Shown here piece after piece: positions 8,359 through 60,400 of a DNA stretch of 64,000 nt (positions are counted from its first letter, which is position 1; each line of letters starts with the position of its first letter). Below the pieces are notes generated by a model, which saw only the letters and a program-made list of their open reading frames with translations, was not told the DNA's origin and made no database searches. This DNA comes from Macrostomum lignano (taxonomy: Eukaryota): NCBI GenBank assembly GCA_002269645.1, contig NIVC01003377.1, positions 1-64,000 of the forward strand. The letters run 5' to 3'. A program made the position numbers and the translations under genes.

Positions 8359-10494
8359 CTATGGAGCCTATTGGGCTATTAAAAAGCAATCCTAAAAGCT
8401 TTGCAGCTTGTAATTGATCAACTTTTTCTACTTAGCCTTTATAAAATATGACTTTCTATCTTCTGGAAGCATGCAAGTAAATTAATTTAAGTTCAAGATA
8501 GATTTGATAATTGTATTTTCAGTTTTGTAGCTTATTATAATGTATATATAAACTATGATTATACATAAAGTTGATATTGCTAAATATTATGAAAAATAAC
8601 TTAAGAGAGCATCTAGAAAGCTCATAGTTTATATAGATAATAAATATGGTAACAAAACAATAACATATAAATCTATTCATATTAGAACCTAAAAAACTAT
8701 GCTTTTTATAATCCTTTAAAAATGATATGCTTTATTTAAGAATATAGAAGCCTATATTGTACTAAAAATAATTTAAAAAATAAAAAGTATCATTTCCCAA
8801 AAGAAACTAGCTAGTATGTAGTAGTAAAACATAAAAACAAACTAGAAGCCAAATTAGGCATTTCAAATCAATTTAGTACCATATATAGTTCATTTATTTT
8901 AACTAAGCTTACATATAATTTAAATGTCTACAGTTTATATCAAAACAAACTAATAGCACTTAAAATTAAATCCTACAAATATAATACTACCACAGACTTT
9001 CGAAGTTACATATCTAAGCTATATAATCTACATTATACTAATGTAAATTGTAAGTTAGCAATTAATATTTATTTTAGACATTATGCAGGTCTACAATATC
9101 TATAAGAAGTAAATGATACTATAGTGTCAGTTTTGCTAGCTTCTTTACATTTTAAACAACAGATTAATAATAAAATAAACAGATTAAAGTCATATATCAG
9201 CATTTATTCTACCCCAAGGGCGGAATATTTACACTTGGGTCGTTCTCAAAGTTTCGACGTAAGCAGTTAAGCAAATTTTTTTTAATCCGCCTTAAATTGA
9301 GGGCTTATTTTTTCATGTGGCTCGACAATACTATTAAAAATAAACGTTTATGATTATAAACAGTCATTTTTATTTAAAATTCTTGAGTAAATGTCAAGAG
9401 TCTGCGCATCTTCGTTTTTTAATTTATTTTTTGGATTATCGCTTTATAGCGTAATACCCATTTTATAGATACAATATTTTTCTCACGTGGTCGTATCAAA
9501 AAGTAAAACTATCAAATATTATTTATATCTTGATTTCTTACAACCTGAAAGCCATTAAAACCTTTGGCTTGTTGAATTGACGTTTTTATTTTGACTTTTC
9601 TAGAAGCGTGACACTGTATGGGATGAAAAAAACTAACTTTCAGTTCATTCGTTCAGCTGATAGAATCAAAAGAGAGGTGTGTTTTCATCTGTTATTAAGA
9701 AAGATGGTCACAATTTACAATATAGTATCAAAATATTCAGTGTCATTTAAAATTGTAAGAATTATGTTAATTAAATCACGAGTTTTTAGTTTTTCAATAG
9801 CACAAAATTAACCTAACAAATACAGATTAATCTGTCTACAATAAAACAAGCAGTACCAGAGTAGTTCTGTTTCAAAGCCTTCATCTGTGGCTTGAAAAAA
9901 AGTACTGCCTCTATGCCCCTAGTAAAGTATTAAAAAATTCTCAGCACATTGTTAGGTTTTTGGAAGGTATTTTTGTACATCTAAAATAAACTTGGCCATT
10001 TAAATGCCCAATCTGTTGATGAAAAACAACAGAATTTTACGCTTTGTACTTAAATTTATACTGATCTAATTTAAACTGGGTGTTGTTAGTTGTTTTTACT
10101 CAAAAGAAGATTTTTAGACTGATTTTTTAATATTTTATAGTACATTTTAAGTAGTCTGAAACAAAAATTAATATGCTAAGAAGCAGGAAAGAATAAAAGA
10201 TGAATAAAAATGATGCCGTGCATTTTTATAGAAATACCATGAGAAAACAGTCTTGCATCTATGTATGAAATGATAGTTATAATTATGAAACTAATTTTCT
10301 AGAGTTTACTAAAATAACATTTCTATGCTTCTTACTTTCTAATTAGATCGATTATGCATGATTAGTGATCTCAATTTTTAGGTAATAGATTCGGCCTTTT
10401 GTTACATACCAACGACAAAAAGAAAATAGAAACATTTTTTAAAATTACTACTGGCAATGGTAAAAATAGTACATCAGAAACGAATAATTATGCC

Positions 10495-10986: not shown

Positions 10987-13302
10987 ATGAATTCCGTTCA
11001 CTTTCAGCTCAAAAGCAACTGCTTCTTTAGTATGCCATCAAAGAAGCAGCGCGCTCGCGAGTCTTATAAAAAATGGGAGAATAAAAAGCGTTCCGCTGAT
11101 CTTGAGGGATTCAAAGAGCAGAATCGATTGAGACAAAAAAAGTTCTATTACAAACAAAAAAGTATCATGGAATCGGACGCAGTAAAAGACCAGAGAAGAC
11201 GTCAGATTAAGCCTAATTCAAGGAATGATACTAAACAGATTAAGAGCACTGCGAATGAGCGATTGAGTCGGTCTGAGGCTGCTAAGCAGCGGGAGATGAG
11301 AAAGAAAAAGGAAGAAATTTCGCGTTTGCTTGAACGGTTGAAGAAGGTGGAAGAAGAAAATAAAAAGCTGAAGCAGCAGAAGCGGCGAAGATCTAAGGCT
11401 GCTGTTTCTAGACAAGGTGCCTCTGACGATTCAGATGCCGCCGTCAAGCATATTGTGGATAGCGTCGTAGCAGTGAAACGAAAGAAGCACATGCAAGGCG
11501 TAGTTCGGCGCATTTGTGAGACTGCTGAGACTCCTGGAGTAAGAAAAGAGGTGCTCCGGCGATTGCACTGTTCCGGGAAAATTTTGAAGCCGCTTCCACC
11601 GCCAAAAGTGAAAAAGTTGCCAATGGCTGTTTCGGATTTTTTGTGTGAGGACCAAAACTCACGGGCGACTGCTGGAAGAAAAGAGACCGTGCTCAGAGGG
11701 TCGGAAAAGAAGCAGAAACGCTATCTTCTTTACGGAATGCAGATTTTGTACGAAAAATTTCTGTCTGAACACCCGACTGTAAAATGTAGCAGGGCTTCAT
11801 TTTACCGTTACAAGCCGCCACATGTGCTTCAACCAAAAGTAGGCAATCGAGAACAGTGCCTGTGCCCACTGTGCACCAACGTCGACCTTTTGGTTGAAGG
11901 AATTTGTAAAGCAAAGCTAATAGATTCAACAGCTGACAAGCATGATCTTCTACGGAAGATTGTTTGCTCAGACGAGTCGTACAACTGTCTGAACAATATA
12001 TGCCAGAAGTGCACCCAGCTTTCTCCTATCAAAGCTGGCGCCGCTGCTAATCAGCCAATTGTTGTGTACGACAAGTGGAAGCGTAGGACTGATGCGAATG
12101 GCATGGAGGTTGTAAAGAAAACGATGAACTGTGAGTTTGCCATAGCAAAACTTTTGAAACATTTGCGCAAATATGGCGCCCACTTCCTGCGCCTCCGACA
12201 TCAATTTCGCGCTATTCGTCAGCTGAAGGACAATCTGGGCGAGCACCACCTGGTGCTACACATTGATTTTAGCGAAGCGTATGGCGCAAAGTACCACCGC
12301 GAGACGCAACCAGCCCATTTTGGAGACCGCGGGCAGGTTACAATTCACCAGGGTGTCGCCTACGGGGTGTGTGAACGGCGAGGTGTGTCATTTGCTTCTC
12401 TGTCGTTGGACCGCAACAAGAAGGCGGAAGCAATTGTTGCACACCTGCTACCTGTACTGAAGCACTTTTTATCCGTCTTAGGTGAAGTTGAGCGAGTCAC
12501 CATCATTTCCGACTCCCCCAGCAGCCAATACCGCAACAGAATGACAATTTTTTTGTTTGATCGACTGTTGCGGCGAATTGGCATCCATCGCTGGCAGTGG
12601 ATCTTCACCGAGGCTGGCCACGGCAAGGGTGCCGCTGACGGTGTGGGAGCGGCCATTAAGCGGCGTTGCGACAACCGGGTGTCTACAGGTGAGCAGAGGC
12701 AGGTGGTCACGGTGCAGGACATGATGGAGGCAATGATGATCGGTGGCAGTAATGAAGAGAAAAAGATTTTGCTTTTCGAGGTTACAACCAGTGACATCGA
12801 GGAGTTTGGAAATGTGCTGCAGATGGTGAACCTGTCTACAATGCCGGGCATTGCCAACTGCCACCACGTCTGCCGAGTTGATGAAAGCGGCATCTTGTAT
12901 CGGGAGCTGGTCTGTCTCTGCACAAAAGCTAATGATTACTGTCGGTGCCACAACGCTAGACTGTGGCAACCGCTGGCTTTGCCACCGATGCCAAGACAGC
13001 AGACAGTGCTTTCGGTGAAAGATGCAGCTGGTGCCGCAAGGTGTTCAACTGGCAAGCGTGTCAGGGGTCAAGAGCGAGGTCGGGGTCATGGTAAGTCGGG
13101 GACTGAGGTCGAGCGCTGCAGTTCTACCATCTGTATTCAGCCTGCAAGTTTGAGAATCCAGTGGATTCAATGCGATGGCTGTGATGCCTGGCATCATTGT
13201 GAATGTGCTGGCTTTCCACCAAAGAGCAACCTGCCACAAAACTATTATTGCTCACCTGATTGCGCCTTCGACCTCACACAGGCTGAGATGAGGGAACTTT
13301 GA
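10987..13302 (+). CDS. Sola2-like DDD transposase with N-terminal basic coiled coil, Cys-rich segment and C-terminal PHD finger (likely start ATG 11032, MPSKK)
   Basis: Uninterrupted 771-codon ORF. Motifs HIDFSEAY, ISDSPSSQYRN and FTEAGHGKGAADGVG supply three candidate catalytic Asp. CLCPLC is present. The C-terminal CSSTIC..WIQCDGCDAWHHCEC..YYCSPDC fits C4HC3 PHD spacing. Confidence 0.88.
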   Translation: MNSVHFQLKSNCFFSMPSKKQRARESYKKWENKKRSADLEGFKEQNRLRQKKFYYKQKSIMESDAVKDQRRRQIKPNSRNDTKQIKSTANERLSRSEAAKQREMRKKKEEISRLLERLKKVEEENKKLKQQKRRRSKAAVSRQGASDDSDAAVKHIVDSVVAVKRKKHMQGVVRRICETAETPGVRKEVLRRLHCSGKILKPLPPPKVKKLPMAVSDFLCEDQNSRATAGRKETVLRGSEKKQKRYLLYGMQILYEKFLSEHPTVKCSRASFYRYKPPHVLQPKVGNREQCLCPLCTNVDLLVEGICKAKLIDSTADKHDLLRKIVCSDESYNCLNNICQKCTQLSPIKAGAAANQPIVVYDKWKRRTDANGMEVVKKTMNCEFAIAKLLKHLRKYGAHFLRLRHQFRAIRQLKDNLGEHHLVLHIDFSEAYGAKYHRETQPAHFGDRGQVTIHQGVAYGVCERRGVSFASLSLDRNKKAEAIVAHLLPVLKHFLSVLGEVERVTIISDSPSSQYRNRMTIFLFDRLLRRIGIHRWQWIFTEAGHGKGAADGVGAAIKRRCDNRVSTGEQRQVVTVQDMMEAMMIGGSNEEKKILLFEVTTSDIEEFGNVLQMVNLSTMPGIANCHHVCRVDESGILYRELVCLCTKANDYCRCHNARLWQPLALPPMPRQQTVLSVKDAAGAARCSTGKRVRGQERGRGHGKSGTEVERCSSTICIQPASLRIQWIQCDGCDAWHHCECAGFPPKSNLPQNYYCSPDCAFDLTQAEMREL

Positions 13303-16531: not shown

Positions 16532-17979
16532 CAGTAGGAATACCAAGCCATTTTTCCGCCCGTCGAACTACCAAGGGAGGGGGAAAAGTTTCCCCCCCCC
16601 CTGACAAATTTTTTTGCTGCGCCGGAACGGAGCAACGCAGACACACAAAATTCAAGAACACGGGCTAACTTTTTGTTGTGCACCTTCTCAAACAAGAATC
16701 AAGTCGCCAGCCCTCTGGACCGTCGAGATATTCGACGATTCTGCCAGAAGGTCGGATTTTTCCCATAAGCGCTAGTGTATTCAGTACACCCCTGTGCGCC
16801 AATCAGCACTGCGCCTCAGTGCAGCCTTGCCAAGTCTCCAAATTTCATCAGCACGTCGACCACATGTGTCTGCATCAGCTCTGACTTCGTTGGTCACTAG
16901 CCTTCACCTAGGCGGAGCTTCTGGACCTTCAACAGGTGGCACCAAGTGACTATAGATACTCTGATACGAATTTCTCGAGTTTCGCTGATCAAGCCTCGAC
17001 AGTGGGCATACCTCAACTGCTAGGTATCCTCAGCTAGTCTCTCGAGCCTTCCATCATCACCCCGACGCCGTCGGCACCTTCAACGGATTACACCAGGTGA
17101 CTATGAACACCCTGATGCAAATTTCTCTAGTTTCGCTGATCAAGCCTTGCCAATGGGCAAGCCTCAACCGCGGAACATCTTCAGCTAGTCTCTCAAGCAT
17201 TCAGTCATCACCCCGACGCCGTCGGCACCTTCAACAGATGACACCAGGCGACTATGAACACCCTGATGCAAATTTCTCTAGTTTCGCTGATCAAGCCTCG
17301 ACAGTGAGCAAGCCTCAACTTCTGGACACCCTCAGCTAATCTCTCAAGCATTCAGTCATCACTCGGACGCCGTCGGCACCTTCAACAGATGACACCAGGC
17401 GACTATGAACACCCTGATGCGAACTTCTCGAGTTTCACCGATCAAGCCTCGACAGTAGGCAAGCCTCAACTGCCGGACACCCTCAGCTAGTCTCTCAAGC
17501 ATTCCGTCATCATCCCGACTTATTGATGAGGTATGCCCACTGTCGAGGCTTGATCAGCGAAACTCGAGAAATTCGTATCAGAGTGTCCATAGTCACTTGG
17601 TGCCACCTGTTGAAGGTCCAGAAGCTCCGCCTGGGTGAAGGCTAGTGACCAACGAAGTCAGAGCTGATGCAGACACATGTGGTCGACGTGCGTATGAAAT
17701 TTGGAGACTTGGCAAGGCTGCACTGAGGCGCAGTGCTGATTGGCGCACAGGGGTGTACTGAATACACTAGCGCTTATGGGAAAAATCCGACCTTCTGGCA
17801 GAATCGTCGAATATCTCGACGGTCCGGAGGGCTGGCGACTTGATTCTTGTTTGAGAAGGTGCGCAACAAAAAGTTAGCCCGTGTTCTTGAATTTTGTGTG
17901 TCTGCGTTGCTCCGTTCCGGCGCAGCAAAAAAATTTGTCAGGGGGGGGAAACTTTCCCCCCCCCTTGGTAGTTCTACTG
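16532..17979. mobile_element. Non-autonomous foldback DNA element with ~455-bp inverted arms and internal 151-bp tandem repeats, flanked by TTAA
   Basis: 16560-17015 is the near-perfect reverse complement of 17527-17979. TTAA at 16528-16531 and 17980-17983. Termini CAGTAGGAATACCAAG vs (rc) CAGTAGAACTACCAAG. Internal unit recurs at 16981, 17132, 17283 and 17434. Confidence 0.85.
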
Positions 17980-50085: not shown

Positions 50086-50108
50086 GTTTTTCTCTCTTAT
50101 CTCTCCTC
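49500..50108. repeat. CT-rich array/(CT)n microsatellite, left flank of the palindrome
   Basis: Pyrimidine-only tract, homologous in direct orientation to 59120-59700. Confidence 0.92.
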
Positions 50109-53100
50109 ACTACTAAGGGATTCCGTAAGGCTTGATTTTGGAGGTGGGGTGGGTGTCAACCCTCCTCGCCTCTCATTGGCTGGCGCCCCGATCACTAGGT
50201 GATCGATACCCGTATCGATATCGGCGACTCGAACCCGCGACCCTCCCCAGCCGCAGGCGCACCTACCGATATTAGATCCCAATAAATCAATCAGATCCCA
50301 AATCAATCAGATCCCAAGCGCACCCTCCCGAGCCGCAGGCGCCCATGCAGCAGGCGCCCATGCCGCAGGCACCCCGAGTGTACACTCTCCCGATATGTGT
50401 GTACACCGATATGTAGTCATCGATACGGGCCTCTTCCCCTCTCTCACCTACATCTCAACTAGCGAAATCGAACCCAGGTCGCGCCCATACTAGGACACTA
50501 CACGGTTGTGGGGTATAGGGAGCGAGAAGTTTCAACCCTAACGCTGACGCAGCCCTGTACAGTGAGAGTGTACGGGCAGAGAGGGGTGGGGCGGACAGAG
50601 AACCAGCCACTAGGTTGTTATACTGTTGAAGCATAGGGAGCGAGAAGTTTTAACCCCGATGCTGACGCAGCCCTGTACACTGAGCGTGTACGGGCAGAGG
50701 GTGGGTGGAAAGAGATGTGAATAACACAGCCTGCTGCAGGAGCCGGATAGAGAGGCGCATGCTAGGACAGAGAGGTAGTGTGAGTCACACACACCCCACA
50801 GAGAAAGCCATACAGAGGATAGAGAGCTCCCTCCCCAGTTGCAGGGGACAGAGAGGCAGGCAGGGTATGCAGGGGCATGCGAACCGTCAAGGGGCCACGC
50901 GAGGATAGAGTGGAGGAGCAGAGATGTGTTTGGACAGAGAGCCAGCCACGTGTGCGTAGTGTGAGGGAACAGAAACATATGGAGCAGGAGGGAGATAGGA
51001 AGCAAACGCGCAGGGTAAGGGAGCCATGCAGCAGGGAGCAGTGTACAGTGAGACACGGGCAGGGGTGGAGCCGTGCGTGGACAGAGCTGAACGGCACGGT
51101 CAGCTGCAGGAATAGGATGATAGAGAGGCGCGGAGGGGGACAGAGAGCAGTGTGCAGGGTAGGCAGCCACGCAGGCTGGGGAACAGAGAGGCGCGTGTCA
51201 GCCAGTTACAGCCCGGGACAGAGAAGTATGAAGGGGGGCCTGGGACAGAGAAGTATGAAGGGGGGCCTGGGACAGAGTTGCGAGCAAGGCACAGAGAGAG
51301 GTAGGGTCCGGTAGCTATGTATAGGCAGGGACCCACGCGAGGGCAGGACAGGGCATGCAAGGCATGCAAATTACATGCAAGGGCAGTGAGGTGTGCGCGG
51401 AGGGAGACAGAGAGCAGTGTGTAGGGGTAGGTAACAGCAAACTTTAGTAGCGGCGCGTGCGGGGACGGAGAAACCAGTCAGAGCATACAGAGACGTTACA
51501 GAGAGGTACACAAGCAGAGACCAAAGCGAGCAGAGCACATGTGTAGGGACAGAGACGTGAGGGAGAATCGACCAAAACACGCTATGTATTTTCAAAAGTT
51601 GGTTTTAGTGCAACATGTTTAATAGTGGGTAGTATAATAGTATGTACATAGTAGGTATAATAGTAGTAATAATAGTAAGCATATTAGCCCAAAAGGTAGA
51701 CTAAAACAGGCTAAACTGTGTGTACGCATCCTCATCACCCCACAAGCCCCCTCTCCCGCCAGACTCACTCTACCAAACCCTCCTGTATTGCTGCATGAAG
51801 GAAAATATAGTGTAAAAATACAGATCTTAACCGTCAGACCGCTGAAATCAGGGCACACTAGAGGGGTTTCGGGGTCTGCATGCTCTATGTAAGCTGCTTG
51901 AGGAGGTTCCAAGGGCGTTGTGAGGGTTTCCATTATGTTTTGAAAAAAACTAGAGGCTTAAATACAACGTTTTATTCAAAAGTAGGTTATTTTAATGAAA
52001 TAGCTGACACAATCATTGTCGAGAGTAGAAATTTTTATAAGAAACCAGGCATTTTAGCAAAAATAAACCTTCAAACCACATAAAATTGAATAAAAAGCAG
52101 ACATTTTCAATTATAAACCGCAAGTATTTTAATAGAAAAGTAAGCAAACAAGGCACAAAACCAGCAAATTTTACCTTTTTATTTTAATGTTACTGATAAG
52201 GTAGAGAGTAGAAACTTGTGAGCTGTACGGAGTTAGAAAGTATTAACCATTATGTATCGTATGAATTATTAGTTCAGTACCAGCCATTGGTCAAGCGAGC
52301 ATTTATGAAGTTATTACGAGTGATGAAGGGATAGAGAGCTATATACAGGAAGACAGTATCCTTCTAAACCACCACGAACAGATTGCTAATAGAGATAAGC
52401 TTTGTCTGTGTGCAGTATGAGTAAGCGAAGGCGGGGCAAATACTTTTCCACATGCCGGACAGAACAGTATTGTGCTAGGATTTCTCTCGAAATCGCGGTA
52501 CGTTACTAGTTTTTATCACACCATCCAGATGCGTCAACTAGTCAGCAGTAGTCATTTATATGTTATTAGAACTTACAAACCCAGGTCAAGTAAATATTAC
52601 AAAGAGTATATTACGTACACACGCCAACTCCGAATACCAAGCCATACTAGTCTACTTGCAGTGCTCCTGGAGGGAAGGGACGGCGGGGTGTACATCCGGC
52701 AGGGTGGGCGTCCAGCGAGTGTACATCTGACAGGATGGGTGTTCAGCAAGTGTACATCTGACAGGGTGGGCGTTCAGCAAGTGTACCTTCAGCGTCGAGT
52801 AGGTGTACACCCGTCAGTGGGAACTCAGCCCCTCCCACCAATGTCGTGTGCACGCGGTTAGTCAGTATAGTGGTGGGGTAGACGGTGCAGGAAGGAAACC
52901 CAGATGCTGACGCTGCCCTGTACAGCGAGCAACCAGCCCTCCTGTAGCAGGAGGGGGACAGAGAGTGCGTGGAGGCAGTAGGAGATAGAGGACGCTACCC
53001 GGCATGTCGCAGCACGCGGCGCGGGACAGAGAGGCAGTGTGTAAGTCACCCCCACAGGGAGAGCTGCCCTGGCAGGAGGCGCGGGACAGAGAGGCGGTGA

Positions 53101-56100
53101 ATCACACCCCACGGAGAGAGCCGTACAGCGAGCTTCCCCACCCGAGTCCGGTAAATATTACAGAGTATTACGTGCACACGCCAGCCCTGAATACCAAGCC
53201 ATACTAGTCTACCTGCAGTGCTCCCAGAGGGAAGGGATGGTCAGGAGTTACACACCAAGAATGCATTCATACAAAGAGTACACAACTCGAGCCCAGACAC
53301 CAAGTCACAGTCTACTTACAGTAGAGATGGTAGATTAATAGCAAGATTATATTACAATTAGACCTCCCTAGCACATGAGGAGTGAAATTCAATAATAATT
53401 GAATTCAATAATAATACAACATTTAGACGTAGTAATTTAATTACAAAATACCACTAACACTGAGCCAACGAATTGTAGGTTACAAAGGAGTTGCACTCAT
53501 ATGGAAAGCCAGTATAATGCAGGTGTATATTATTAAAACATAGACAAAAACGATGCAGACGTATATACACACTATTGATTTTGTACATGTACATTTCGGC
53601 ATATTACCACACATCGCAGGCACATATTATATATCGGGGGATAGGTTAAAATACACACATCGTAGATGTAGAAGCAGACACAATGCAGGAAAATTATGAT
53701 ACGAGTGTACATATTAGTGCGTAAAAGTATCATATTATGACACCCTGTAGCACATATTGACATAATGCAGGGGAAAATATTGACAGAAATAGTACACAAT
53801 TGTAGAGGTAACAACCCGCCAACTAGTAAGGACATCCAGCACTTGTTCAGGTTTTTATTATTTCGAGACGAGTGTCATGCCCCCGCAAGAGATCTTATCA
53901 GAAATTTGTTGAACTCCACTGCAACTCTCCCAGAGCCTCCAAATGTGAGTTTTTAACCCAGGGTCGAGTACAAAGGACCCGCCCACTCTTAACCCCAAGG
54001 GGTGATCGTAGCGGAGACCAAGTACAGTGCGGACGGAGAGGGGTAACAGAAAGCGCTGCATCAGACCGCAGGGCTGCATTCCTCCCCGAGGTAGGCGCGT
54101 CAGCTCCCACTCCTCATTTAACCATCAAGTAAACTAAAGAAGTCAAGCAGAAAGCCTTACAATCACCCGCAACCAGCACAAGTAAGAGTACTTTCCACTA
54201 GAGAGCCATAGTGCAAGATTCGCGAGCCAAGTTGAAGAAGCACACCAAATTACACTAAAGACATATGTATTAAAAAGCATACCGGCACCTCTACAAAAAC
54301 ACAGTATGTACCGATTAAAGTTGCTTTTGGTGCAGTGTATTTAATAAAAGCAGGTACCTAACACAAAAGTAGGCATCAATGCAGTGCACGGGCTAAACTG
54401 TATTTACAAACGCAGGGCAACGAACTACACACAATGTAGCGCATAGACATAATTGTACGCATAAATGTACGCAATTTCCGGTATATAGGACCAAATGTAC
54501 ACAATGTACACAAACACACACACACACACACACACTCAGGCGTATTCACAGCAAGAGCTTCCTGCCGATGGCGCCATCGCCTGCGGCGATCGGTGCTGCA
54601 GGATGCGCTGCAGGATGCGCCTGAGTGTGTGTGTGTGTGTGTGTGTTTGTGTACATTGTGTACATTTGGTCCTATATACCGGAAATTGCGTACATTTATG
54701 CGTACAATTATGTCTATGCGCTACATTGTGTGTAGTTCGTTGCCCTGCGTTTGTAAATACAGTTTAGCCCGTGCACTGCATTGATGCCTACTTTTGTGTT
54801 AGGTACCTGCTTTTATTAAATACACTGCACCAAAAGCAACTTTAATCGGTACATACTGTGTTTTTGTAGAGGTGCCGGTATGCTTTTTAATACATATGTC
54901 TTTAGTGTAATTTGGTGTGCTTCTTCAACTTGGCTCGCGAATCTTGCACTATGGCTCTCTAGTGGAAAGTACTCTTACTTGTGCTGGTTGCGGGTGATTG
55001 TAAGGCTTTCTGCTTGACTTCTTTAGTTTACTTGATGGTTAAATGAGGAGTGGGAGCTGACGCGCCTACCTCGGGGAGGAATGCAGCCCTGCGGTCTGAT
55101 GCAGCGCTTTCTGTTACCCCTCTCCGTCCGCACTGTACTTGGTCTCCGCTACGATCACCCCTTGGGGTTAAGAGTGGGCGGGTCCTTTGTACTCGACCCT
55201 GGGTTAAAAACTCACATTTGGAGGCTCTGGGAGAGTTGCAGTGGAGTTCAACAAATTTCTGATAAGATCTCTTGCGGGGCATGACACTCGTCTCGAAATA
55301 ATAAAAACCTGAACAAGTGCTGGATGTCCTTACTAGTTGGCGGGTTGTTACCTCTACAATTGTGTACTATTTCTGTCAATATTTTCCCCTGCATTATGTC
55401 AATATGTGCTACAGGGTGTCATAATATGATACTTTTACGCACTAATATGTACACTCGTATCATAATTTTCCTGCATTGTGTCTGCTTCTACATCTACGAT
55501 GTGTGTATTTTAACCTATCCCCGATATATAATATGTGCCTGCGATGTGTGGTAATATGCCGAAATGTACATGTACAAAATCAATAGTGTGTATATACGTC
55601 TGCATCGTTTTTGTCTATGTTTTAATAATATACACCTGCATTATACTGGCTTTCCATATGAGTGGCAACTCCTTTGTAACCTACAATTCGTTGGCTCAGT
55701 GTTAGTGGTATTTTGTAATTAAATTACTACGTCTAAATGTTGTATTATTATTGAATTCAATTATTATTGAATTTCACTCCTCATGTGCTAGGGAGGTCTA
55801 ATTGTAATATAATCTTGCTATTAATCTACCATCTCTACTGTAAGTAGACTGTGACTTGGTGTCTGGGCTCGAGTTGTGTACTCTTTGTATGAATGCATTC
55901 TTGGTGTGTAACTCCTGACCATCCCTTCCCTCTGGGAGCACTGCAGGTAGACTAGTATGGCTTGGTATTCAGGGCTGGCGTGTGCACGTAATACTCTGTA
56001 ATATTTACCGGACTCGGGTGGGGAAGCTCGCTGTACGGCTCTCTCCGTGGGGTGTGATTCACCGCCTCTCTGTCCCGCGCCTCCTGCCAGGGCAGCTCTC

Positions 56101-59050
56101 CCTGTGGGGGTGACTTACACACTGCCTCTCTGTCCCGCGCCGCGTGCTGCGACATGCCGGGTAGCGTCCTCTATCTCCTACTGCCTCCACGCACTCTCTG
56201 TCCCCCTCCTGCTACAGGAGGGCTGGTTGCTCGCTGTACAGGGCAGCGTCAGCATCTGGGTTTCCTTCCTGCACCGTCTACCCCACCACTATACTGACTA
56301 ACCGCATGCACACGACATTGGTGGGAGGGGCTGAGTTCCCACTGACGGGTGTACACCTACTCGACGCTGAAGGTACACTTGCTGAACGCCCACCCTGTCA
56401 GATGTACACTTGCTGAACACCCATCCTGTCAGATGTACACTCGCTGGACGCCCACCCTGCCGGATGTACACCCCGCCGTCCCTTCCCTCCAGGAGCACTG
56501 CAAGTAGACTAGTATGGCTTGGTATTCGGAGTTGGCGTGTGTACGTAATATACTCTTTGTAATATTTACTTGACCTGGGTTTGTAAGTTCTAATAACATA
56601 TAAATGACTACTGCTGACTAGTTGACGCATCTGGATGGTGTGATAAAAACTAGTAACGTACCGCGATTTCGAGAGAAATCCTAGCACAATACTGTTCTGT
56701 CCGGCATGTGGAAAAGTATTTGCCCCGCCTTCGCTTACTCATACTGCACACAGACAAAGCTTATCTCTATTAGCAATCTGTTCGTGGTGGTTTAGAAGGA
56801 TACTGTCTTCCTGTATATAGCTCTCTATCCCTTCATCACTCGTAATAACTTCATAAATGCTCGCTTGACCAATGGCTGGTACTGAACTAATAATTCATAC
56901 GATACATAATGGTTAATACTTTCTAACTCCGTACAGCTCACAAGTTTCTACTCTCTACCTTATCAGTAACATTAAAATAAAAAGGTAAAATTTGCTGGTT
57001 TTGTGCCTTGTTTGCTTACTTTTCTATTAAAATACTTGCGGTTTATAATTGAAAATGTCTGCTTTTTATTCAATTTTATGTGGTTTGAAGGTTTATTTTT
57101 GCTAAAATGCCTGGTTTCTTATAAAAATTTCTACTCTCGACAATGATTGTGTCAGCTATTTCATTAAAATAACCTACTTTTGAATAAAACGTTGTATTTA
57201 AGCCTCTAGTTTTTTTCAAAACATAATGGAAACCCTCACAACGCCCTTGGAACCTCCTCAAGCAGCTTACATAGAGCATGCAGACCCCGAAACCCCTCTA
57301 GTGTGCCCTGATTTCAGCGGTCTGACGGTTAAGATCTGTATTTTTACACTATATTTTCCTTCATGCAGCAATACAGGAGGGTTTGGTAGAGTGAGTCTGG
57401 CGGGAGAGGGGGCTTGTGGGGTGATGAGGATGCGTACACACAGTTTAGCCTGTTTTAGTCTACCTTTTGGGCTAATATGCTTACTATTATTACTACTATT
57501 ATACCTACTATGTACATACTATTATACTACCCACTATTAAACATGTTGCACTAAAACCAACTTTTGAAAATACATAGCGTGTTTTGGTCGATTCTCCCTC
57601 ACGTCTCTGTCCCTACACATGTGCTCTGCTCGCTTTGGTCTCTGCTTGTGTACCTCTCTGTAACGTCTCTGTATGCTCTGACTGGTTTCTCCGTCCCCGC
57701 ACGCGCCGCTACTAAAGTTTGCTGTTACCTACCCCTACACACTGCTCTCTGTCTCCCTCCGCGCACACCTCACTGCCCTTGCATGTAATTTGCATGCCTT
57801 GCATGCCCTGTCCTGCCCTCGCGTGGGTCCCTGCCTATACATAGCTACCGGACCCTACCTCTCTCTGTGCCTTGCTCGCAACTCTGTCCCAGGCCCCCCT
57901 TCATACTTCTCTGTCCCAGGCCCCCCTTCATACTTCTCTGTCCCGGGCTGTAACTGGCTGACACGCGCCTCTCTGTTCCCCAGCCTGCGTGGCTGCCTAC
58001 CCTGCACACTGCTCTCTGTCCCCCTCCGCGCCTCTCTATCATCCTATTCCTGCAGCTGACCGTGCCGTTCAGCTCTGTCCACGCACGGCTCCACCCCTGC
58101 CCGTGTCTCACTGTACACTGCTCCCTGCTGCATGGCTCCCTTACCCTGCGCGTTTGCTTCCTATCTCCCTCCTGCTCCATATGTTTCTGTTCCCTCACAC
58201 TACGCACACGTGGCTGGCTCTCTGTCCAAACACATCTCTGCTCCTCCACTCTATCCTCGCGTGGCCCCTTGACGGTTCGCATGCCCCTGCATACCCTGCC
58301 TGCCTCTCTGTCCCCTGCAACTGGGGAGGGAGCTCTCTATCCTCTGTATGGCTTTCTCTGTGGGGTGTGTGTGACTCACACTACCTCTCTGTCCTAGCAT
58401 GCGCCTCTCTATCCGGCTCCTGCAGCAGGCTGTGTTATTCACATCTCTTTCCACCCACCCTCTGCCCGTACACGCTCAGTGTACAGGGCTGCGTCAGCAT
58501 CGGGGTTAAAACTTCTCGCTCCCTATGCTTCAACAGTATAACAACCTAGTGGCTGGTTCTCTGTCCGCCCCACCCCTCTCTGCCCGTACACTCTCACTGT
58601 ACAGGGCTGCGTCAGCGTTAGGGTTGAAACTTCTCGCTCCCTATACCCCACAACCGTGTAGTGTCCTAGTATGGGCGCGACCTGGGTTCGATTTCGCTAG
58701 TTGAGATGTAGGTGAGAGAGGGGAAGAGGCCCGTATCGATGACTACATATCGGTGTACACACATATCGGGAGAGTGTACACTCGGGGTGCCTGCGGCATG
58801 GGCGCCTGCTGCATGGGCGCCTGCGGCTCGGGAGGGTGCGCTTGGGATCTGATTGATTTGGGATCTGATTGATTTATTGGGATCTAATATCGGTAGGTGC
58901 GCCTGCGGCTGGGGAGGGTCGCGGGTTCGAGTCGCCGATATCGATACGGGTATCGATCACCTAGTGATCGGGGCGCCAGCCAATGAGAGGCGAGGAGGGT
59001 TGACACCCACCCCACCTCCAAAATCAAGCCTTACGGAATCCCTTAGTAGT
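50109..59050. mobile_element. Giant (~8.9 kb) palindromic foldback element: arms 50109-54542 and 54618-59050, 75-bp spacer
   Basis: Arms are reverse complements throughout, and the ORF track is mirrored. Termini ACTACTAAGG..CCTTAGTAGT. CTCCTC lies directly outside both ends. No ORF longer than 190 aa lies within it. The palindrome itself is certain; its mobile-element nature is inferred. Confidence 0.8.

Positions 59051-60400
<1,350 letters not shown>

Follow-up and report, generated by a model that had tools for sequence, protein, structure and literature searches.

A gene-less 8.9-kb palindrome of Macrostomum lignano shares its ends with the two halves of a split Polinton and probably spreads as their fold-back satellite

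The palindrome and its junctions

The window, that is the whole stretch of 64,000 nucleotides that was analysed (Macrostomum lignano, assembly GCA_002269645.1, contig NIVC01003377.1, positions 1 to 64,000 of the forward strand), contains a near-perfect palindrome of 8,942 bp. At its left junction, ACTACTAAGG begins at 50109, directly after the hexamer CTCCTC (50103-50108). At its right junction, CCTTAGTAGT stops at 59050 and is followed by CTCCTC again (59051-59056). The arms, of about 4,437 bp apiece, differ from each other by one substitution and three 1-base indels. The parts of the element are listed in Table 1.

CT tracts lie on the same strand on both sides of the palindrome, indicating that it sits inside an older CT-rich stretch. 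Two random 6-mers drawn from these tracts match by chance in 2.5% of cases, so that the CTCCTC match at this locus alone is a weak proof of a target-site duplication. The sequence-only reading, which had proposed the duplication, had itself pointed out that CTCCTC might match by chance inside a CT tract; for a single locus this caution is justified.

Table 1. Features of the palindromic element and its flanks (positions in the window)
Feature	Position	Strand	Remark
Target-site duplication, left copy, CTCCTC	50103..50108	.	6-bp duplication in 62/64 elements with these ends
Entire palindrome (8,942 bp), free of recognisable genes	50109..59050	.	No helper-protein tblastn match; no Pfam match (two longest ORFs); eight ORFs without third-position bias
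Invariant tip ACTACTA	50109..50115	+	Also present on elements A (polymerase) and B (capsid/integrase)
Variable end tag, nt 8-27	50116..50135	+	Here AGGGATTCCG-TAAGGCTTGA; variants common to P, A and B
Subterminal block matching the terminal repeat of the polymerase segment	50109..50393	+	82% to C691
Left arm	50109..54545	+	
Internal block like the terminal repeat of the capsid/integrase segment	52684..53049	+	71-79%
Centre, 69 nt, non-palindromic	54546..54614	.	Kept between copies; imperfect hairpin, z = -4.05
Apical stem-loop of the centre	54576-54590		Minus-strand loop is GCA
Right arm	54615..59050	-	Inverted copy of the left arm
Target-site duplication, right copy, CTCCTC	59051..59056	.	

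Target-site duplications across the family

Copies of the element were sought across the 764-Mb assembly that contains the window. With the terminal 192 bp as query, the best 40 of 260 candidates are mostly inverted pairs at a spacing of 8.3-9.3 kb; with the AT-rich arm as query, the best 40 of 119 candidates are all 99-100% copies. Exact matches in the genome number 156 for a subterminal 25-mer and 50, haplotig duplicates included, for a 22-mer from the centre.

An exact 6-bp duplication flanks 62 of the 64 elements, of all classes, in which both ends were found. This count is made up of the window copy and of sets of 12/12, 32/32, 11/11, 3/4 and 3/4, a few of them haplotig duplicates of one locus; one further region beside the 32/32 set showed only one end and was left out. 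Among palindromes with both ends the figure is 30/32. The two duplications of the 64 that do not match are each off by one flank base. The duplicated hexamer varies from locus to locus, the end position is identical in all copies and the whole element is an inverted repeat. It is these family-wide duplications that settle the one in the window as real, and the proposal made from the sequence alone is thereby borne out by the kind of tabulation of genomic copies that it had recommended.

The same reading had considered CACTA (EnSpm) ends with a 2-3-bp duplication, since the left junction of the window reads CACTAC from 50108. However, the C at 50108 is the last base of the duplication of this particular copy. 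Across the copies, the base that precedes ACTACT may be A, C, G or T, the duplications are of 6 bp, and neither CACTA...TAGTG ends nor duplications of 2-3 bp are what the family displays. The CACTA interpretation is thus refuted, and the probability that we leave to it is negligible. The 'reversed polarity' ascribed to the termini is more aptly described as a change of motif, A-C-T for A-G-T, in which the first A is kept.

Three classes of element with common ends

Elements with these ends fall into three classes. Class P, the palindromes, has a median length of 8.8 kb among the 24 copies measured (range 6.7-9.4 kb, plus one 21-kb copy with a nested element). Class A (18 copies) has a median of 9.5 kb and terminal repeats of about 900 bp, and class B (9 copies at 8 loci) a median of 10.5 kb and repeats of about 650 bp. 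Class A encodes pPolB, as judged from a Pfam profile match (PF03175). By tblastn, pPolB is present in 19/19 A-type elements, and capsid, ATPase and protease genes in 0/19; one A-type element has a distant integrase, located inside a nested Polinton. Conversely, 9/9 B elements carry integrase, capsid, ATPase and protease genes, all four together, and pPolB is present in 0/9. In 25/27 P-class elements none of these genes is detected by tblastn, the exceptions being due to a nested distant Polinton and to a recombinant (see below).

The B integrase is of the rve type (PF00665, above cut-off), and the ATPase is nearest to Pox_A32 clusters (0.98). The protease is assigned solely by a His/Asp/Cys motif and by its position. 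The fourth product, a protein of 427 amino acids whose relatives are labelled F54H12.2-like, has no match among solved structures in a sequence search. In a fold search, its predicted model (pLDDT 79.7) matches the double jelly-roll capsid proteins of PBCV-1, Sputnik and mavirus with E values of about 1e-16, and on this model it is a double jelly-roll capsid protein. The capsid/integrase segment also contains, at L103:7349-7882 and 9422-10225, a Fic-domain gene above cut-off and an ORF that weakly resembles TBP (E 9.5e-5, slightly below cut-off).

Besides the 6-bp duplications and the fixed ends, same-ended elements therefore encode pPolB, an rve integrase, an A32-type ATPase and a predicted double jelly-roll capsid protein, and the Polinton-like geometry suspected by the sequence-only reading is upheld. 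The tblastn search for these proteins, which it had advised, does find them near such termini, on two separate classes of element. What that reading missed is this split of the helper and the absence of genes from the palindrome.

Classes A and B have no blastn match longer than 200 bp, and only the terminal ~30 nt are common to them. No joined form carrying both modules was found. Of at least 61 places with close capsid genes, only two lie on the same contig as one of at least 91 pPolB places, at distances of 49 and 130 kb. Among the distant capsid genes (at least 12), two have pPolB at 9.3 kb. Ordinary Polintons of this genome start with AGTAGT, with both ends found in 4/5 regions, and measure 16.4-17.5 kb. 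Palindromes of these ordinary ~17-kb Polintons were found for 0/5 of the members checked, which belong to two families.

The pPolB gene (L082:1928-6558, in the polymerase segment C691) is interrupted by GT-AG introns; several are about 70 nt long, and another spans 742 nt. Two of the splice joints occur in 3/3 runs presumed to be RNA and are absent from the run presumed to be DNA; two further joints occur in 2/3 presumed-RNA runs, and one is present in all four runs. At L082:6500, 6858 and 8809, which are likely transcript starts, long loose ends are seen solely in the presumed-RNA runs, possibly as a result of leader trans-splicing. Ordinary AGTAGT-ended or distant Polintons are nested in a polymerase segment and in a palindrome (C271:282527-314471 and C106).

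Coding content and origin of the arm

The palindrome looks non-coding. Its two longest ORFs have no match in Pfam, and eight of its ORFs are intact in just 2-15 of 18 copies, with no excess of third-position changes, all codon positions varying alike. None of six joints in the arm, from four runs, is of the GT-AG type (a weak result, obtained from contigs only). In Rfam, the sole match of the palindrome is to a CA repeat and falls short of the gathering score. The helper proteins have no tblastn match in the window palindrome, which is devoid of the pPolB, integrase, capsid, ATPase and protease genes of an autonomous Polinton. Like a non-autonomous derivative, it has the same ends and the same duplication length as the coding elements, lacks their genes, and is present as many independent insertions.

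The first 285 bp match the terminal repeat of class A. Beyond the blocks listed in Table 1, the remainder matches neither helper. Most of the arm being unlike either of them, the palindrome is not a simple deletion product of the helpers. No host source of the arm is seen among the best 40 of its 119 candidates.

Arm identity, end tags and recombinants

Within a copy, the two arms differ by a median of 0.09%, a value that assembly polishing may have lowered by inflating arm identity, whereas the copies differ from one another by 2.0%. These figures come from an alignment of 19 copies, from which C176, without a centre, was excluded and in which the mis-cut copy C93 was retained for the medians. 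They indicate that the arms are made alike after lineages part. In C56 and C660 the arms are 1.4-1.7% apart. Furthermore, two arm-specific differences beside the centre are common to 7 independent insertions. This implies that the palindrome is also inherited as a unit, that it does not result from fold-back during assembly, and that not every round rebuilds one arm from the other.

The end varies strongly over nucleotides 8-27, and the three commonest 10-nt tags are present on P, A and B elements alike. Copies whose bodies differ by 0.0% bear different tags. Indeed, body distance is similar for pairs with equal and unequal tags (1.4% and 1.2%, respectively). The two ends of a copy carry mismatched tags in 0/24 P, 1/18 A and 3/8 B loci (P versus B, Fisher p = 0.011). 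In addition, a recombinant between a P arm and an A polymerase half is present between two different flanks, with 7,330 bp in common at 99.9%. Tag swapping, arm identity and this recombinant together suggest that molecules replicating alongside one another exchange sequence.

The hypervariable, modular tags stand directly behind the invariant tip in the ends of both the present family and its sister family (see below). In adenovirus, the most conserved sequence of the origin occupies that position behind the tip. Two loci hold elements with a single arm, 4.1-5.1 kb long and flanked by 6-bp duplications, which give no sign of having moved as such. A partial fold-back of the polymerase segment is found in C1158, similar to C1313 (see below).

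A sister family with ACTACG ends

A second family has the ends ACTACGTA, a pattern with 109 matches in the genome. Its end ACTACG is an inexact trinucleotide repeat. The organization is the same: four A2 elements carry pPolB only, four B2 elements carry the capsid/integrase module only, and 15 other elements are without pPolB or capsid/integrase genes, four of these being whole-length palindromes of 7.8-9.6 kb. Of 20 regions, 17 have a 6-bp duplication, one has a longer microsatellite match and two have none. There are thus two sister families, marked by ACT-type ends, each comprising two helper halves and a palindrome.

No homology between the arms of the two families is detected by blastn or tblastx. 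The centres of both fold into an imperfect GC-rich hairpin with a short apical stem and a GCA loop on one strand, a likeness that could be due to chance. GNA loops form unusually stable DNA hairpins.

In L150 (C2132), a derivative of the sister family, arms of 2.2 kb each contain a dUTPase-like ORF and enclose THAP/transposase-like ORFs, all labelled by reading their translations. In L139-L140 (C1313), a capsid/integrase segment of this family, inverted arms of 3.7 kb double the ATPase and capsid genes.

A model for propagation

We propose that the gene-less 8.9-kb palindrome, with its dozens of insertions and its ACTACT ends common to two separately inserted Polinton halves, spreads as their fold-back satellite; this we consider probable. 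Class, end, duplication, gene content and size are all observed on integrated copies, from which we infer that copying and insertion depend on the helpers. Outside the chromosome, the pPolB of helper A would start at the ACTACT tip, perhaps by slide-back, and displace one strand. Slide-back initiation is known from adenovirus. The ACTACG ends of the sister family indicate that the trinucleotide repeat need not be exact. The whole element being self-complementary, the displaced strand could snap back into a 4.4-kb hairpin whose origin would already be double-stranded. Synthesis across the loop would then restore the 8.9-kb duplex, keep the arms alike and carry a new end tag to both ends. Finally, the integrase of helper B would insert the duplex. 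In this scheme the tip ACTACTA is likely to be the site of both initiation and integrase action.

A more speculative extension concerns packaging. Intact elements of all classes measure about 8.5-10.5 kb, and a single arm amounts to 42% of B. Once doubled, a unit of 4.4 kb would reach about 85% of the length of the larger helper segment, which a capsid sized for 9.5-10.5 kb could package. Adenovirus genomes below 75% of the normal length rearrange to regain size (PMC9863843); with the clustered lengths seen here, this suggests that doubling may be an adaptation to packaging. The one-arm copies weaken the notion of a strict size limit, unless they arose by deletion after insertion. A still wider proposal, which we regard as possible and hold only tentatively, is that of an integrating multipartite dsDNA animal virus. 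This would be a Polinton split into separately packaged polymerase and capsid/integrase segments of 9.5-10.5 kb, with a doubled, self-complementary component fitted to the capsid, joint extrachromosomal replication, trading of origin tags, and two sister families with ACT-type ends.

The palindrome might instead be a non-autonomous, foldback-like element that the Polinton integrase moves by cut-and-paste alone, its arms being kept alike by chromosomal gene conversion, with neither pPolB copying nor packaging. Integration needs just the ends and a 6-bp duplication, one-arm copies exist, and palindrome arms in other genomes are known to undergo gene conversion. Yet tags at the ends are exchanged between copies and between classes more quickly than the bodies mutate, a palindrome/polymerase recombinant has moved to two sites, and in both families the lengths cluster near those of the helper segments; movement by integrase alone is therefore unlikely. 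It is also conceivable that the palindrome is a useful third segment of a multipartite virus, acting as a non-coding RNA, a decoy or a regulator, rather than a parasite. Both split families retain such a class, at a copy number similar to that of the helper segments in the present one, both have a hairpin centre with a GCA loop on one strand, and the arm is covered by runs presumed to be RNA, a cover that we do not count as evidence, no run being recorded as RNA for this stretch. However, a useful segment would have to be reconciled with arms that have no detectable sequence in common between the families and that show no Rfam family at gathering score, no GT-AG joints and no codon signal; we rate this possibility as quite low.

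As for an assembly or long-read fold-back artefact, four regions (C201, C843, C1580 and C1190) do have an inner end that runs on into the left host flank in inverted form, a structure that could stem either from fold-back of reads in the assembly or from replication running from an integrated end into host DNA, and several contigs have only one arm. Against this stand the differing host flanks joined by a 6-bp duplication in 30/32 palindromes, the recurrence of the same centre 50 times, the arm-specific differences of 7 independent insertions and, in the window, flanks that are CT tracts on the same strand. An artefact is accordingly very improbable, and a fold-back satellite of the two Polinton halves remains our preferred interpretation.

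Relation to known systems

Vertebrate Mavericks are described as units of 12.7-24.6 kb that carry eight genes, all of them intronless, are flanked by 6-bp duplications and end in (AGT)2, (AG)3 or (AC)3A (PMC8097293). Animal Polintons and adintoviruses, those of nematodes included, are presented as single units (PMC8502044, 10.1101/2023.08.22.554363), and the accessible part of PMC11161782 does not contain the word 'segment'. The elements described here resemble Polintons/Mavericks in their 6-bp duplication, terminal inverted repeats and repeated A-x-T tip, and in that pPolB, rve integrase, A32-type ATPase, protease and double jelly-roll capsid (the last as predicted) all occur among same-ended elements. 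Unlike in published Polintons, the genes are distributed over two elements of 9.5-10.5 kb, pPolB has introns, the end is (ACT)2A and the window element is wholly an inverted repeat and gene-less.

Segments with matching ends are described for bidnaviruses and for Drosophila Vesanto virus (PMC8502044, PMC8363768). The likeness to the latter two lies in the matching-ended segments and in a polinton-type pPolB carried by one segment. Bidnaviridae and Vesanto virus are, however, single-stranded and parvovirus-like, with no integrase and no double jelly-roll capsid. Here, instead of a single jelly-roll protein and no integrase, there are a predicted double jelly-roll capsid and an rve integrase; moreover, all pieces integrate with a 6-bp duplication and there is a gene-less palindrome class.

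Snap-back defective genomes, helper-dependent adenovirus vectors and the hairpin or palindrome plasmids of the yeast pGKL system are self-complementary, poor in genes, provided with two copies of one end and dependent on a helper polymerase. Size correction towards the packaging optimum (PMC9863843) is a further parallel. These molecules arise in culture and do not integrate, whereas dozens of copies of the window element have become fixed in the germ line of an animal. The foldback elements FB of Drosophila and Galileo also have very long inverted arms and few or no genes, and rely on a Mutator- or P-type transposase. In contrast, the ends, the 6-bp duplication and the tag sharing tie the window element to a Polinton integrase and polymerase.

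Searches of the literature outside Repbase, subscription journals and supplements, which may describe non-autonomous Polintons, brought up no account of a segmented Polinton, of a segmented integrating double jelly-roll virus or of a palindromic Polinton satellite. The present analysis ties the palindrome to both halves of a split Polinton, and adds the repetition of this arrangement in a sister family, the ACT-type end as its mark and the exchange of end tags.

Whether animal Polintons form particles, and how their DNA is copied, has been judged from sequence models. A palindrome that lacks genes, follows its helpers in length, has arms that stay alike and swaps its tags with them would preserve, in nature, the traces of replication by strand displacement and fold-back, and possibly those of packaging. 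The host animal carries young copies, which are presumed to be transcribed.

Other elements of the window

A 1.4-kb element at 16568-17971 has inverted arms of about 420 bp and an internal tandem array of 151 bp. Its ends, ACTACC...GGTAGT, resemble the tips of the family, and no flanking duplication is visible. On the plus strand, an open frame of 771 codons extends over 10987-13302.
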